NCBI GenBank assembly: GCA_012295275.1 | Contig: CM022669.1 | Location: 14,632,001-14,696,000, forward strand | DNA from: Chrysomallon squamiferum | Taxonomy: Eukaryota > Animalia > Mollusca | Reading direction: 5' to 3' | Length of the DNA stretch: 64,000 bases | In this document: positions 2,269-56,620 of the stretch, one piece after another | Position numbering within the stretch: the stretch's first letter is position 1 | Layout of the letters: each line of letters opens with the position of its first letter | Translations under genes and position numbers: made by a program | The notes under the pieces: generated by a model | Told to the model about the DNA's origin: nothing | What the model saw: the letters and a program-made list of their open reading frames with translations, nothing else | Databases searched by the model: none

Positions 2269-4329
2269 ATGGCCTGCGTGTGCAAAATATCTCAAAGGAA
2301 ATTTGTTCTGTTTATCGCACTGATTTTGATTTATTTGGCGTTAACGATTTTTTTTCAACAACAACGTTATTCTTCACCGCGGTCAGGCAGTATTCCGATT
2401 CCAAAAGAGCAGCGTTCTGGAGGAGTTCTGATAGTAGGGGCGGGCTTGTCGGGAGCGGTGCTGGCTCATCTTCACGCGACTCTTCTGAAAAAGAAAGTTC
2501 TCATAATCGAGAAAAGGGACCACATAGGAGGCAACTGCTACGACTACGTCAATGAACGCGGTATACGAGTTTCGAAGTACGGAGCGCATCTCTTCCACAC
2601 GAAAAACTCTCTCGTCTGGCGCTACCTGTCCCAGTTCTCGAAGTGGATTCCTTACGAACACAGAGTGGTCGCGAAAGTCGACGGAAACTACGTTCCTGTT
2701 CCAGTGAACATAGTCACGGTGAATATGTTATTCAACGAATCGATAAAAAATGCAGAGGAGATGCAACAATGGCTGGAGAAGCATCAGATACGAAACGACC
2801 ATCCAAAGAACGGAGAAGAAGCTGCCAAAGCGCGAGTTGGAGAAGTTCTCTTTGATAAACTGTTCAAAGGTTACACCTACAAGCAGTGGTCGAAGTACCC
2901 AAAAGACTTGGACGCCTCGGTGCTTCAACGCATTCCAGTTCGAGACAATTTCGATGATCGTTATTTTCCCTACGACGACTACCAGGCGTTGCCAGGAGAC
3001 GGGTACACGGCCATGATTTCACAAATGTTGAATCACAGTTTAATCTCCGTCAACCTCAACACAGATTTTGTTAACTTCAAAAATACCAACAGAATTTCGG
3101 TCAAGACATTCAGCAAGACATTTTTTACCGGATCCATCGATTTGTATTTCGCTTCGTCTGGTCTAGAGAAGCTAGAATACAGGTCTATCAACTTTGAAAC
3201 TATTCACCTGGAACAAACGTTTTTCCAGCCAAATGTTGTCGTAAACTACCCAGGGGGACCGGGAAACTTTACAAGAATCGTTGAATACAAACATCTGTAC
3301 AACCGAGACGTCGTGGGTACAACAATAGTCAAAGAATATTCTACCGATTCGGGAGATCCGTACTATCCTGTTCCAACTGAGCGAAACAGAAAGGTGTATT
3401 CGAAATATGCAGCTTTGGCGGAAGAGGAAGAAAAACGAAATAACGTATATTTCGTCGGCCGCCTTGCCAATTACAAATATTTCAATATGGACCAAGCTGT
3501 TCTTAATGCCATACAGCAGTTTAAAAGAGCATATCCCAGTGTTTCGTTTACAAAGGAGCAACTGTTTCCAAAGAGTTTGGCTGACGCTAATGCAATATTT
3601 ACAAGACACGTGAAAGGAAGCGCATCAATCTCTTTTATTACCAGCCACTGCAAAGAAAATTTGCGATGGCTGCATGATGACTTTTTTAAGTTATGCAGCG
3701 AAACTAAAGTTAATATATTTATTTATGAAAAATGTGGAAAGGACCAACAAGGAGCCGAGTTTGCTAAAAACTACCCGAAATGCAACGTCGTTCAGATAAC
3801 ACTTCCCAACGTCGGCAGAGAAGGTCATACCTGGGTGTATCACATGTTAACGAAACAAGCCGAGTTTTCTGACGTAAACGTCTTTCTTCAAGGCGGAAAA
3901 CATGCCGCTACAAGGCAAGTGATGCAAGGTATTGGGCAACTGAAATCGCTGATGAAAGACAGGACAAAATACCTGATTTATTCAGAGAGCAAAATGCTAT
4001 ATCGTCACTATATCACATTCGGTTCAGACGTCTGTTTTGAATTACACCATAACTATCTGGGCTGGAGCAAAGAACAGTTTCACAACTGCACGTGCGAGTA
4101 CTATTATCGCATCACAAAAACGAGGAAGAACTGTTTGAGATTTCGCGTTAATTTCAAAGGTGAGTTCTTGGTGACTGGTGTGTTGCTGCATCGCAAGCTG
4201 GCAGAATACAGAAGCCTGCTCATGACGTGGTACTCAGATCTGTCCTTTAAGAATAACCCTGAACAGGGTCACCTTGTAGAGAGGATGTGGAATTTATTTT
4301 TTAGGTACCCAGCAAATGTCCAGTGTTGA
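2269..4329 (+). CDS. glf: Membrane-anchored UDP-galactopyranose mutase (bacterial-type Glf/UGM) fused to a C-terminal DUF3431-like domain; coding region intronless
   Basis: Uninterrupted ORF with first ATG at 2269 (the track's start at 2221 is a TTG directly after the acceptor-like tcttcag). N-terminal RK-FVLFIALILIYLALTIFF signal anchor. UGM motifs in order: GAGLSG (FAD), GGNCYD, YGAHLFHT, YEHRV, YTYKQW, RIPVR, YQALP..GYT, TRIVEYKH, EY, DPYYP, GRLANYKYFNMDQ. The C-terminal ~240 aa carry ENLRWL, IYEK, LPNVGREGHTW..H, VFLQG and GHLVERMW, recalled as DUF3431-type motifs. Confidence 0.9.
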   Translation: MACVCKISQRKFVLFIALILIYLALTIFFQQQRYSSPRSGSIPIPKEQRSGGVLIVGAGLSGAVLAHLHATLLKKKVLIIEKRDHIGGNCYDYVNERGIRVSKYGAHLFHTKNSLVWRYLSQFSKWIPYEHRVVAKVDGNYVPVPVNIVTVNMLFNESIKNAEEMQQWLEKHQIRNDHPKNGEEAAKARVGEVLFDKLFKGYTYKQWSKYPKDLDASVLQRIPVRDNFDDRYFPYDDYQALPGDGYTAMISQMLNHSLISVNLNTDFVNFKNTNRISVKTFSKTFFTGSIDLYFASSGLEKLEYRSINFETIHLEQTFFQPNVVVNYPGGPGNFTRIVEYKHLYNRDVVGTTIVKEYSTDSGDPYYPVPTERNRKVYSKYAALAEEEEKRNNVYFVGRLANYKYFNMDQAVLNAIQQFKRAYPSVSFTKEQLFPKSLADANAIFTRHVKGSASISFITSHCKENLRWLHDDFFKLCSETKVNIFIYEKCGKDQQGAEFAKNYPKCNVVQITLPNVGREGHTWVYHMLTKQAEFSDVNVFLQGGKHAATRQVMQGIGQLKSLMKDRTKYLIYSESKMLYRHYITFGSDVCFELHHNYLGWSKEQFHNCTCEYYYRITKTRKNCLRFRVNFKGEFLVTGVLLHRKLAEYRSLLMTWYSDLSFKNNPEQGHLVERMWNLFFRYPANVQC

Positions 4330-29414: not shown

Positions 29415-29622
29415 ATGCTCTTTCCTTTGGCCTTGCTGATGTTCGCCGTCGTCGAGGATGTTGTAGGACATGGTCGACTTCTGGAGCCGCCGTCGCGGCA
29501 AAGTATGTGGCGGTTTGGATACAAAACTCCAATCAACTACAACGACAACGAGTTGTATTGTGGTGGTTTTGCGGTAAGATAGCGAACAGAATAAAACTGA
29601 CATGTTTTATTATTATTAATTA

Positions 29623-29669
<47 letters not shown>

Positions 29670-30101
29670 ATTATTATTATTATTATTACATACAGGCTGA
29701 GGATCCCATATCCGATATTTCTGAATCCAGAATTTTTTTTAGGGGCAGCAAAATAGTTTATTACAGTTTATTTTATTTTATTTTATTTTATTGTGCATGC
29801 GTGCGTGCGTGCGTGCGTGTGTGTGTACAAAACTATTAAATAAATTATTTATGAAACTCCAGACAACTACAACGACAACGAGTTATATTATGGTAAGATC
29901 TTTCTTGTGTGTTAATATATATTATATTAAATTTCTGCAGACTGTTTATATAAGCCGTATATGAAATATAAATGGAATTAAGGTTTAAACGTAATCGTTT
30001 ATTCTCTGGCAGTCTCACAAGCATTTCGGATAAAGGATTCTCAACCTGTATTATTATTATTATTACTGAGTACGATATTATATCAGTAAGTATGTAACAC
30101 A

Positions 30102-30192
<91 letters not shown>

Positions 30193-31356
30193 TATCTGCA
30201 TTAGTTTCTTTATGCATGTCGGAATTCTTTATATTATGTACTGTGCATAAATCCCTGACGTATATTTTGCCGCACTACAGTCATTCAGTGACGTCATTTA
30301 TTTAACAGTATCAATGGGAAAAAAACGGTGGCAAGTGTGGCGTGTGTGGCGATCCCTGGGACAAGCCACATGAAAACGAAGCGGGTGGAAAATACGCCAC
30401 AGGAATTATTGTGCGCCATTATAAACAAGGGCAGATAATTGACATCACTTTAGAGATTACGGCCAATCACAAAGGTATATTATAATTAATATATAATTAT
30501 AAGGTTTATATTCGCTGCTGTAAAATTTCATTTTGAAAAATCATCATTATTATTTTTTTCTTCTTAATTATTATTATTATTATGATGATTATTATGATTG
30601 TTTATTGTTATTATGGTTGTTGTTGTTGTTGATATTATTATTCGGCTGCAAAGAGAATTAAAAACAGTAGGTTTCAAAAACAGTTTTATTGTGAGATAAT
30701 TTTATTTATTTTTATGTTTTTCCTGTAGCTATATTAATATTTAATCAGTAATTAAATAAAAATTAAACAAAAATTAAAATATCTTCGAAAGACAATAAAT
30801 CTTAACTACATCTAATCATTAAACATAAATAAATAACTCAATAAATCAATAAATCAATAACAAAAAAAAACAAAACAATACTTATAATAATAATTCACTT
30901 TTCATATCTGTTTTTATTTTGTGTTGCTATTACTATTAGTATAAATCTCTATTCTTAATATTTTACTGAACCAGGCTATTTCGAATTTCGAATCTGTCCT
31001 AATAACGATGTCAATAAACGGGTCACACAGAAATGTCTTGACAAGTATTTGCTACAGCTGGAAGATGGAAGTACAAAGTACTTCGTAAGGACAAGGCGAA
31101 CGGGACTTTACAAAATGAAACTGCGACTGCCCGACAAGGTCACGTGCAGTCAGTGTTTGCTGCAGTGGAAGTACAATGCAGGTATGCAAGACACATAAAA
31201 CTCATTCCGCCTCGTTCTCATGCTGCGTCTGCCTGAGAAATGTAGTCTGCTCCTCTTCGTTTTCTCCGACTGTGATTCATTTTCTGTTGTCGTTCTGCCC
31301 AGTTTTACTTAATCTTTTGTCTCTCACTCATTTGGCCTCTTCGAATATGTTCATAA

Positions 31357-31444
<88 letters not shown>

Positions 31445-31941
31445 ATCTTATCAGAATATATAGAACTTCATTGTATTTCTTTTTCTTTTTTTTTGTTATT
31501 TTATTATTGCTTTTTATTTACTTACTTAATTACTTGCCTTTGGTAACTATTGACACCTATATAACATTTTTTTTCATTCAAGGAAATTCGTGGGGTTGTG
31601 AAAACAGTCATTGCTGTGTGGGCTGTGGTCATCAAGAACAGTTCTACGGCTGCGCAGACGTTTCCATCTCGTCAGTGTACGGTCCTTTTCCGACGCCACC
31701 GACTACGCCCTGGATACCACGCCCGACCACTCCCTGGATACCACGCCCGACCACGCCCTGGATACCACGACCGACCACACCCTGGATACCACGACCGACA
31801 ACGTCCGATTTTGATTTTAAGAACTGCCACGCTCTTGGTCGCTGGACTGGAAACGCTGGTATGACGTATTGGTGCATACTTAATTGCTCCCGTGGGTCGT
31901 GTCCTACAGGTCTTTGTTCTCCGGAATGCAGACAACACTGA
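29415..31941 (+). CDS. Secreted lytic polysaccharide monooxygenase (AA15 / chitin-binding type-4 family), copy 1, with PTTPWIPR linker and C-terminal Cys-rich domain
   Basis: Exons 29415-29573, 30309-30474, 30975-31181 and 31583-31941, all GT-AG and phase-consistent. Signal peptide ends ...VVG|HGRLLEPPSR (His1). Further motifs: YNDNELYCGG, GKCGVCGDPW, ITANHKGYFEFRICP (second brace His), CSQCLLQWKYNAGNSWG, GCGHQEQFYGCAD. Confidence 0.92.
31700..31803 (+). repeat. Coding 24-bp tandem repeat encoding (PTTPWIPR)x4 linker
   Basis: CCGACCACGCCCTGGATACCACGC-type units inside LPMO copy 1 exon 4. Confidence 0.92.
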
Positions 31942-32064
31942 AATAAACTAGTTTTGTTATGTTCATTTGTTGTTGGTGTGTTTTTGTTGTTTTTATTGTT
32001 GTTTTTTTTTTTTTTTTTTTTTTTTTGAGAGGTATGTCTTCTTATTTTATATAATTTTTTTAAA

Positions 32065-55237: not shown

Positions 55238-56620
55238 CGTAAAATAGTAATAAGAGTAGTAGTAATAATAATAATAATAATAATAATGGCACTAATTATA
55301 ATTTAATGATAATAACAAATCATTAATGTAATAGTAATAACAAAAAAGAAAAATTTGATTAAAACTGTGTCCTTCAGTACAACATTATTTGAGATGAGGC
55401 AAAAAATAAATAATAATAATAATAATAATAATAAGACAATAATAATGATTTAATAATGATAACAAATTTATAAATCTAACAATAACAAAAAAGGCAAATT
55501 TCATTCAAACTCTGTCCTTCAGTACAAGATTCCTTAAAACGAGGCAAAATAATAAAAATAGCACCAATGTCAGTTATCACTAACTACTTCAAGCTTCATT
55601 CAGCTCTTTACAGTGATCTTGGGGTTTATTTGGCCAAGACTCAATCTTTGCTTCCCAATCGATATTTGCCTCTTGCCAGATTCTCCGATGGGGCACTAGA
55701 TGTTCTTTCGGCATCACCGAGGATTTATCAGCCACCACCCAAACTGTTGGTTTTTTAGTTATCTGGGGCACGGCCCACGTTCTATCTACCTTAAACTTTC
55801 TCCTGGCGTTGAACTCTTTGATCTTCTCCAGGGTGTTCTCCATATGCTCGCTGCTGGCTGCCAAACCCTTCACCCAGGGATGCTGCAGGGCTGACTTGGC
55901 TGCGATTCTCTTCTTGGGGTCGAGGTTTAACAGTCTTTTCACCAGGTCCTGTAAAAAAAAAAAAAAAAAAAAAAAAAAACATTATCGTTTGCTTGTATGT
56001 TTAAAATTATCAGTACACTCTGAGAACTATTTTGTTTCTTTTTTTGAGATTGTAAGATTATTGTCATGATTTTTTTTTGTTTTTGGATGTTATGTTAGAT
56101 TTAAAATGTGGAGCCTATGTATGATTCAAATTATAAAATAGGACAGTTATAACCGATTCAAAATTATGGGACAAATCCTAAGTAAATATTGAAAAATGTG
56201 GTAAGTTATATTCTTTATAAATCTTGACTGTATGTGACTTTAGCTGGTTTGTGTAAACATACAAACTAAATTTTATAACTGAAAAGAGTGAAAAAATTAT
56301 GGCATGATTGTGGATCTTTTTACAAAACACTATTAATAAATACTCTCAGAATATTCTAGTTCATGTGAAATACCTTGGCATTCTTGGAGATGTCATCCCA
56401 GTATGGCTCATGAAACTCATACTTTCCCTTGATGACATTCTTATACATCTCCATATCATCCTGTCCAGCAAAAGGTTCATAACCACAAAGTCTGAAACCA
56501 AACAAAAAAACAATGTTTTAAAAAACAAAATAATTAGCATTTACCTCTTGGAATAATTTCCATTTTATTTAGGAAAACACTCAAAGTATACAAAATAAAA
56601 CCTAAAAAGAAGTTATCAAA

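Follow-up and report, generated by a model that had tools for sequence, protein, structure and literature searches.

The window analysed here is a stretch of 64,000 nucleotides from the mollusc Chrysomallon squamiferum (contig CM022669.1, forward-strand positions 14,632,001 to 14,696,000). Positions 2269-4329 of its plus strand form a single intact, stop-free open reading frame (ORF) of 2,061 bp encoding 686 amino acids. This is the sole long non-repetitive frame among the 13 ATG-initiated ORFs of at least 100 amino acids in the window. It joins a predicted membrane anchor, a uridine diphosphate (UDP)-galactopyranose mutase (UGM) domain and a DUF3431-like domain in one chain. An initial annotation, made from the sequence alone, had proposed that an animal uses this protein to make and transfer galactofuranose (Galf) inside the Golgi.

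A basic tail, MACVCKISQRK (residues 1-11; 2269-2301, +), opens the protein and is predicted to be cytosolic from its sequence and the charge around the next segment (+4 on the N side, +2 on the C side). That segment, residues 12-29 (2302-2355, +), is a predicted type II signal-anchor by hydropathy and lies within a model helix at residues 9-35. The Ser/Pro-rich stem that follows (residues 30-52; 2356-2424, +) is variable in alignment A1, and its residues 35-49 are disordered in the full-length model, with a predicted local distance difference test (pLDDT) score below 50. The prokaryotic-type mutase domain covers residues 53-421 (2425-3531, +) and contains the motifs GAGLSG (57-62), YGAHLFHT (104-111), YTYKQW (202-207), RIPVR (221-225), TRIVEYKH (335-342), PYYP (364-367) and GRLANYKY (397-404). 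A helical linker, visible in the alignment and the model (residues 422-452; 3532-3624, +), leads to the DUF3431-like domain (residues 453-679; 3625-4305, +), which has a predicted glycosyltransferase A (GT-A) fold. Within this domain are Cys461 and Cys489, which covary and are predicted to form a disulfide (3649-3735, +), the LPNVGREGH motif (residues 512-520; 3802-3828, +), read through residue 521 as LPNVGREGHT, and the GHxxERxW motif of the last helix (GHLVERMW, residues 667-674; 4267-4290, +). The intact ORF and every motif quoted in the initial annotation were thus located in the translation.

The mutase domain scores 329.9 bits against the prokaryotic family profile TIGR00031 (cut-off 303.75). 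The HMMER comparison with Pfam GLF that had been proposed gave a clear match (PF03275, 222.7 bits, cut-off 26.3, E 5e-66). The best sequence match in the PDB is the UGM of Deinococcus radiodurans (E 3e-87), and the predicted structure adopts the three-domain UGM fold, with a template modelling (TM) score of 0.95 by target and a root-mean-square deviation (rmsd) of 1.7 to that enzyme (3hdq). When the D. radiodurans contacts to UDP-galactopyranose (UDP-Galp; Table 3 of PMC3624792) were mapped by hand on the alignment of the PDB match, 11 of the 12 were identical, namely F199, Y202, T203, W207, H131, R221, Y232, N326, R336, Y366 and Y404 of the window protein; the sole changed contact is F175 of D. 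radiodurans, which is L198 here. At 27 of 28 chosen positions the residue is the one that most of 95 single-domain mutases have. By these comparisons the active site is intact, and the reading of a bacterial-type UGM with preserved flavin adenine dinucleotide (FAD) and substrate motifs holds. The domain is predicted to interconvert UDP-Galp and UDP-Galf.

The long eukaryotic-type UGM of fungi, trypanosomatids and nematodes was considered for this domain and ruled out, since both sequence and structure are nearer the bacterial enzymes. None occurs among the 13 PDB sequence matches, and the model reaches TM scores of 0.56-0.64 with long eukaryotic UGMs (13-15% identity in structural alignments) versus 0.86-0.97 with bacterial ones. 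Compared with prokaryotic Glf (TIGR00031, PF03275, 3hdq), the domain passes the family cut-off and has the same predicted fold and substrate contacts; the window protein differs in its added N-terminal membrane anchor, its fused GT-A domain and its eukaryotic host. Prokaryotic-type mutases require reduced FAD and lack the NADPH site, and their reduction is slower than that of the eukaryotic enzymes by a factor of about 10,000 (PMC7662398).

Such an ORF could be a contaminant from bacteria or a symbiont, or a recent insertion that is no longer functional. Its coding frame has no intron, its GC content is 0.43 while that of the microsatellite-rich window is about 0.29, and its closest single-domain relatives are bacterial (55-61%). 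However, contigs of X2, an independent sequencing run of unrecorded kind, cover the ORF from end to end with no indel listed within the frame, the X2 depth of 44-48 on the ORF resembles the 35-55 on unique flanks, and a single contig runs from position 1478 in the upstream flank to position 2826 inside the ORF. X2 shows 24 substitutions in the ORF, 15 of them on the main contigs and the other 9 on a variant of lower depth. Synonymous changes number 15 of the 24, against an expectation of 21% (ratio of nonsynonymous to synonymous polymorphism, pN/pS, about 0.16; p 1.4e-5). The ORF is under purifying selection, which speaks against a dead insertion. The best database match, Gigantopelta aegis XP_041356356.1, is a full-length orthologue (62% over 99%) on a sequence of 40.8 Mb, and a tree joining these two proteins to the nearest bacteria was rejected by the approximately unbiased test (p-AU 0.004). 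Contamination or a dead insertion is therefore largely refuted already and very improbable.

The flanks of the ORF hold only microsatellites, and the terminal repeats of a mobile element were not found there. Two contigs of RNA run X1, of which a small share (0.17) was examined, are identical to parts of the ORF (2859-3127 and 3430-3605) at a depth of 2-2.5, where DNA in the library is a possible source; RNA run X3 gave nothing on the ORF. A second X2 contig at 3432-3583 has 9 differences in 152 bases and lower depth, and an X1 contig with 6 differences departs from the window sequence after 3534. The variant contigs at 3432-3583 represent a divergent allele or a paralogue.

The C-terminal domain is, by sequence and model, a diverged relative of DUF3431. 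Residues 429-686 gave no match to Pfam DUF3431 (PF11913), even at E 5, and the Gigantopelta orthologue scores 19.5 bits, under the gathering cut-off of 25 bits. The relatives supply the connection. A search of 1.84 billion representative proteins with the second domain returned 506 matches at E ≤0.001, and PF11913 is matched at E ≤0.05 by 61 of the 101 aligned rows, which are the window domain and 100 proteins picked for full-length domain matches. The Atlas groups the Gigantopelta domain with DUF3431 (features 0.97, structure TM 0.73), and PF11913 shares its motifs with the window domain, whose own score is below detection. The proposed label "DUF3431-like" consequently stands through relatives, motifs and structure, and formal membership, for which a direct Pfam match would be needed, does not.

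The conserved residues of the domain are E463, Y486, K488, N514-x-G-R-E-x-H520 and G667-H-x-x-E671-R-x-W674. Among the 101 rows, conservation is 96% for N514, 98% for G516, 91% for R517, 84% for E518 and 86% for H520 in the first motif, and 98% for E671, 92% for R672 and 100% for W674 in the second. The window protein keeps 12 of 12 core positions. The domain is modelled confidently (pLDDT 92.5), and in a Foldseek search of the PDB at E <0.001 the 26 matches listed, of 30, are all glycosyltransferases. VIA-align placed the model beside ArnC (Z 11.5, rmsd 5.7 over 176 residues), mannosylglycerate synthase (Z 11.5, rmsd 4.6 over 181) and core-2 GlcNAc transferase (Z 10.3, rmsd 3.6 over 189), the last being metal-independent according to its PDB title. 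The fold-search lists are led by GT-A enzymes at Z 11.5-11.9. The fold is thus predicted to be GT-A-like, in line with the glycosyltransferase-like fold suggested initially, and close to no solved family. The DXD motif after strand 4, typical of GT-A enzymes though not found in all of them, is missing: the window protein has FLQGG, and Asp occurs at position 541 in 0 and at position 543 in 1 of the 101 rows. The lack of DXD suggests that the second domain is probably metal-independent. E671 is a candidate catalytic carboxylate or base.

Other family assignments were weak. A PDB profile search with alignment A2 gave two matches at E 0.1, which are meaningless. DUF4422/WbbM and RgpF appeared as weak Atlas leads (DUF4422 0.87, 15% of members). 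Membership in DUF4422/WbbM was rejected, as hhalign with a profile of 18 sequences gave an E of 0.41, which did not improve on unrelated controls. The WbbM N-terminal domain (6u4b), presumably the GT111 galactofuranosyltransferase, was absent from the best 50 fold matches listed. It resembles the present domain in an ERL-type last helix and in the coupling of a transferase-type gene to glf (locus L215), but profile-profile similarity is absent. In the available part of PMC4212599, a DUF3431 protein is described only as salt-induced and of unassigned function, and no function for DUF3431 was found in the accessible text of papers using the term. Docking the two domains of the window protein as separate chains gave a median of 0.22 against a mark of 0.34, which is evidence neither way.

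The anchor stands out in hydropathy. The 18-residue segment at 12-29 has a Kyte-Doolittle 19-mer value of 2.66, and the next highest value in the protein is 1.05. A tail, a single N-terminal helix, a stem and a C-terminal catalytic part make up the layout of a type II Golgi enzyme. Among anchored fusions, 20 of 23 have more positive charge on the N side, which is the type II bias; these 23 carry a hydrophobic segment ahead of the mutase, with five N-terminally cut gene calls, three unclear cases and four viral or virus-like proteins set aside. An N-terminal hydrophobic segment occurs in 1 of 96 mutase-only proteins, and that one is itself a degenerate fusion. In 100 rows of the second domain, C461 and C489 are both present in 51, both missing in 48 and single in 1; C476 and C505 likewise covary. 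Of 19 viral or virus-like domains without an anchor, among which there are duplicates, 18 are readable, and none of these 18 has the 461/489 pair. Kinship among the homologues inflates the counts for charge bias, hydrophobic segment and Cys pair. Type II is the likeliest orientation of the window protein, judging from its layout and its homologues.

The hydrophobic segment might instead be a reverse anchor that leaves catalysis in the cytosol, or a signal whose cleavage releases a soluble protein for secretion. Flavin reduction would pose no problem at a cytosolic site, characterised mutases are cytosolic (PMC7278926, PMC6861824), and the plant UDP-arabinose mutases on the Golgi surface form a parallel. 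For the window protein itself, the charge difference is only -2. Its sequons are also uninformative: the four reported initially are present (N156, N255, N333 and N606), but composition alone predicts about 4.8, so they stand at chance level and offer no luminal evidence. Set against this are the charge bias of the anchored homologues, which is often strong, the two covarying Cys pairs, which suit an oxidising compartment, and the missing 461/489 pair of the anchorless viral versions. A cytosolic or secreted enzyme is accordingly rather improbable. The type II anchor of the initial annotation gains from the layout and the homologue charge bias, and the luminal location that it implies would follow only by inference.

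DUF3431-like domains and mutases are found together in several settings. Both are carried by 40 of 274 collected proteins (five cluster-mates and one fragment included). On viral contigs, DUF3431 lies within 6 kb of the mutase in 11 of 77 loci (the source locus excluded), and these 11 comprise 3 fusions, 5 abutting genes (upstream, downstream or divergent) and 3 that are further off. Control loci for two other sugar enzymes (42 for a dehydratase, 11 for GT4) had DUF3431 in 0 of 53 (Fisher p 0.003). The 753-residue protein P0262 has DUF3431 (E 4.8e-18) fused to a eukaryotic-type mutase (Trypanosoma cruzi UGM, E 1.7e-94). Eukaryotic- and bacterial-type mutases share only 14-18% identity (PMC3624792), and because the eukaryotic type is so distant, the P0262 fusion arose separately. 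By these comparisons, DUF3431 and mutases of either class have come together repeatedly and independently.

Some individual cases extend this picture. In searches of viral sequences, neither P0262 nor a viral DUF3431 that stands alone had relatives beyond the source. The best viral fold match is BFVD entry A0A481Z5S5 of Pithovirus LCPAC202 (769 amino acids), named a flavin amine oxidoreductase; its length is near that of P0262, and it perhaps has the same layout. On a 720-kb viral contig, a GT41-like domain, a mutase and DUF3431 are fused (P0013; locus L001, 6001-9390). The 1,006-residue protein P0014 carries an anchor, an NDP-sugar 4-epimerase, a mutase and a DUF3431-like domain in one chain, possibly a three-step furanose pathway. 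The nearest bacterial mutases sit after a conserved GT4-like gene in 74 of 80 loci; at locus L079 (6886-11489), a 380-amino-acid ORF without a Pfam match and a cytidylyltransferase-like gene come next.

With a probability of about 0.42, the window protein is an anchored type II enzyme of the endoplasmic reticulum or Golgi whose mutase makes UDP-Galf in the lumen and whose second domain transfers the furanose to a glycan or glycolipid. Residues 12-29, a segment present in the sequence, would anchor the protein with its tail in the cytosol. UDP-Galp would enter through the Golgi UDP-Gal transporter, its ordinary entry route. The FAD mutase, a member of its family by profile, would then contract the ring. 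The DUF3431-like domain, with its predicted fold, would use the furanose donor, with E671 as the candidate base; gene pairing is what suggests this donor. The mutase equilibrium favours the pyranose 11:1 (PMC7278926), and transfer right beside the mutase would drain this unfavourable equilibrium without a UDP-Galf importer. For the luminal synthesis and transfer proposed at the outset, the intact mutase site, the GT-A fold, the charge bias, the animal-like genome and the DUF3431-mutase pairing are in favour, and the rest would follow by inference.

Several observations weigh against this interpretation, besides the small charge difference. The need of prokaryotic-type mutases for reduced FAD is the main difficulty for a luminal site, and we know of no luminal reductant for such a flavin. 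The 461/489 Cys pair shows no association with N-terminal hydrophobic segments in alignment A2 (26/22/21/28, p 0.31), and it is missing from the anchored choanoflagellate proteins. Sequons are not enriched in anchored homologues (1.32 times expectation, against 1.15 and 1.13; p 0.17 and 0.35). The likeness to GT-A enzymes is generic, with TM scores of 0.3-0.46 by query, and nucleotidyltransferases reach Z of about 9. For the pairing, no DUF3431 was found near 66 of the 77 viral mutase loci or near any of the 80 nearest bacterial mutase loci. The query for the viral search contained a DUF3431 domain of its own, one of the six seeds derived from it, two pairs of viral loci are near-copies, and the controls perhaps come from other virus groups. 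RNA support from X1 is thin, as the two short contigs leave the anchor codons uncovered. No report of Galf in molluscs was found, and the available parts of PMC6994554 and PMC8724618 gave none. Finally, six homologues have lost the motifs of the second domain and six have a degenerate mutase.

The product could also be a sugar other than Galf. The same luminal mutase and transferase may act on L-arabinose, converting UDP-arabinopyranose to UDP-arabinofuranose (UDP-Araf), or on another pyranose such as fucose or N-acetylgalactosamine (GalNAc). P0014 puts an anchored epimerase before the same two domains. This epimerase is nearest to eukaryotic epimerases of 341-482 amino acids, with an N-terminal hydrophobic segment in 12 of 20 rows (query included), and one relative maps to land-plant clusters of 411-416 amino acids. 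Its group is membrane-anchored, plant and green-algal, and we take it to be that of the Golgi UDP-xylose 4-epimerase (MUR4), a name that no database confirmed. MUR4 faces the lumen (PMC3283625), UGMs do interconvert arabinose, if inefficiently (PMC6861824), and Araf and fucofuranose (Fucf) occur beside Galf on starfish gangliosides (PMC8228791). However, the window protein matches the galactose-converting D. radiodurans enzyme at 11 of its 12 contacts, including that enzyme's H109 and R305, and P0014 is one protein on a different tree branch. A sugar other than galactose is thus unlikely, with arabinose as the real rival, and Galf, favoured by the active site, is the likeliest sugar.

A further question is whether the two domains act on the same sugar. 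The luminal mutase may supply other transferases, and the role of the DUF3431-like domain may be sugar binding, scaffolding or the use of another donor. In homologues either half can be lost: P0005-P0010 keep all mutase residues and only 3-6 of the 12 core positions of the second domain, and P0131, P0136, P0140, P0141 and P0150 keep 11-12 core positions beside a degenerate mutase. In P0135, which also has a degenerate mutase, 8 of 12 are kept, and the three named choanoflagellate proteins belong to this degenerate-mutase set. DUF3431 also stands alone or is fused to another transferase, ankyrin or lectin-like domain, and the missing DXD would suit a function of this kind as well. Against a separate donor, fusion to both mutase classes points to a shared metabolite, viral adjacency occurs without other sugar genes in the scanned flanking ORFs (L006, L019), and complementary paralogues in one compartment would also account for the reciprocal loss. 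On balance, we doubt that the two domains act on different sugars. The loss of either half means that a one-gene pathway, as the initial annotation had strictly conceived it, is not obligatory, and the two activities are separable between genes.

A wider proposal can be offered tentatively, at somewhat less than even odds. DUF3431 domains would be unrecognised furanosyltransferases, and anchored mutase-DUF3431 proteins across eukaryotes would make UDP-furanoses in the lumen. They would provide the missing Galf/Araf glycolipid pathway of marine invertebrates, and paralogues with one dead half would work as complementary pairs.

Other genes of the window bear on its nature. About 25 kb downstream of the ORF are tandem spliced genes at 29415-31942 (+) and 33429-~35590 (+), with exon-wise matches to PF03067 (LPMO_10) and signal-peptide-like starts. 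In the second copy the last exon ends, by eye, before the Cys-rich tail that is present in the first. Because of these tandem spliced LPMO_10-like genes, the window is recognised as part of an intron-bearing eukaryotic genome. A weak match to the C-terminal part of a protein kinase (E 3e-4) at 55595-55981 (-) is probably a single exon.

The layout is not confined to animals. Its named holders are Gigantopelta, Choanoeca perplexa (two proteins) and Hartaetosiga balthica, and it is found in many eukaryote-like proteins grouped here, under our own labels, as animal-like or algal-like. An animal-specific re-targeting is therefore too narrow a reading, as the family spans choanoflagellates, algal-like eukaryotes and viruses. 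PF11913 was found in 0 of 301 genomes in a sample of the Kaistella phylum, where the control was equally silent. In a mutase-domain tree of 52 rows (degenerate copies left out), the window protein groups with Gigantopelta and P0002 (support 100/99), nested in a group of 14 animal-like rows (99/95). The order of the bacterial, viral and algal-like rows along the backbone is not resolved in this tree, and the outgroup has long branches. Since the grouping of the two snail proteins with the nearest bacteria was rejected, a recent transfer from a bacterium to a snail appears unlikely. Joining all animal-like rows to the near bacteria (p-AU 0.28) or to the algal-like rows (p-AU 0.24) was not rejected. 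The gene may go back to an old transfer by way of algae or viruses, or to vertical descent with frequent loss.

Bacterial-type mutases in animals are already published. PMC13390645 (2026) reported them in Ciona, Mytilus and Notodromas as candidates for horizontal gene transfer with function not known, and its tree labels add Mercenaria, Ruditapes, Amphiura, diatoms and other algae. As with the window gene, they belong to the same InterPro family and are single-exon genes of marine invertebrates. The Ciona genes span 1,385 and 1,839 bp, shorter than the 2,061-bp ORF. The initial annotation had held that prior characterisation of the architecture in animals would count against it. Such mutases are on record, but the available main text of PMC13390645 makes no mention of membrane or transmembrane segments, the Golgi, signal peptides, glycosyltransferases, fusion or DUF3431. 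Some of the bivalve proteins may share the anchor-mutase-transferase layout. No anchored or DUF3431-fused mutase appeared in titles and abstract openings, a search that mostly did not reach subscription journals. The mutase family and its presence in animals are thus known; new within the literature searched are the conserved anchor, the predicted GT-A fold of the DUF3431-like partner, the repeated joining of mutase and DUF3431, and the retention of two intact halves in an animal gene.

Two described pathways are close in logic. In Aspergillus and trypanosomatids, a cytosolic mutase (GLF/UgmA), a UDP-Galf transporter and a Golgi transferase (GfsA or LPG1) lead to the same predicted product through a Golgi GT-A step (PMC7278926). 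Their mutase is of the long eukaryotic class, whereas the mutase of the window protein is predicted to be luminal and fused, so that a furanose importer would be dispensable. The plant L-Araf pathway (luminal MUR4, cytosolic RGP/UAM mutase, UAfT importer) likewise feeds Golgi transferases through a pyranose-to-furanose step. The plant enzymes work in the cytosol without FAD and have no relationship to UGM (PMC6861824). With a luminal FAD mutase, the sugar would not have to cross the membrane twice.

Galf, Araf and Fucf are present in starfish gangliosides, and Galf is present in a sponge glycolipid (PMC8228791, PMC7278926). The list of Galf-bearing organisms in the initial annotation omitted these animals. 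The enzymes for these furanose sugars are unnamed in the available text of those two papers, and the gene at 2269-4329 is a candidate route. In described pathways, UDP-furanoses are made in the cytosol and then imported; this gene is a candidate for a luminal mutase, and no pyranose mutase of the secretory lumen is described in the parts of the literature consulted. If the reading is true, having synthesis and transfer of UDP-Galf in one polypeptide would be of practical use, as the donor is costly and scarce. The reading also raises the mechanistic question of how a reduced flavin works within an oxidising compartment. For the widespread DUF3431 domain of fungi, algae, viruses and animals, it offers a candidate function and possibly a new glycosyltransferase family.

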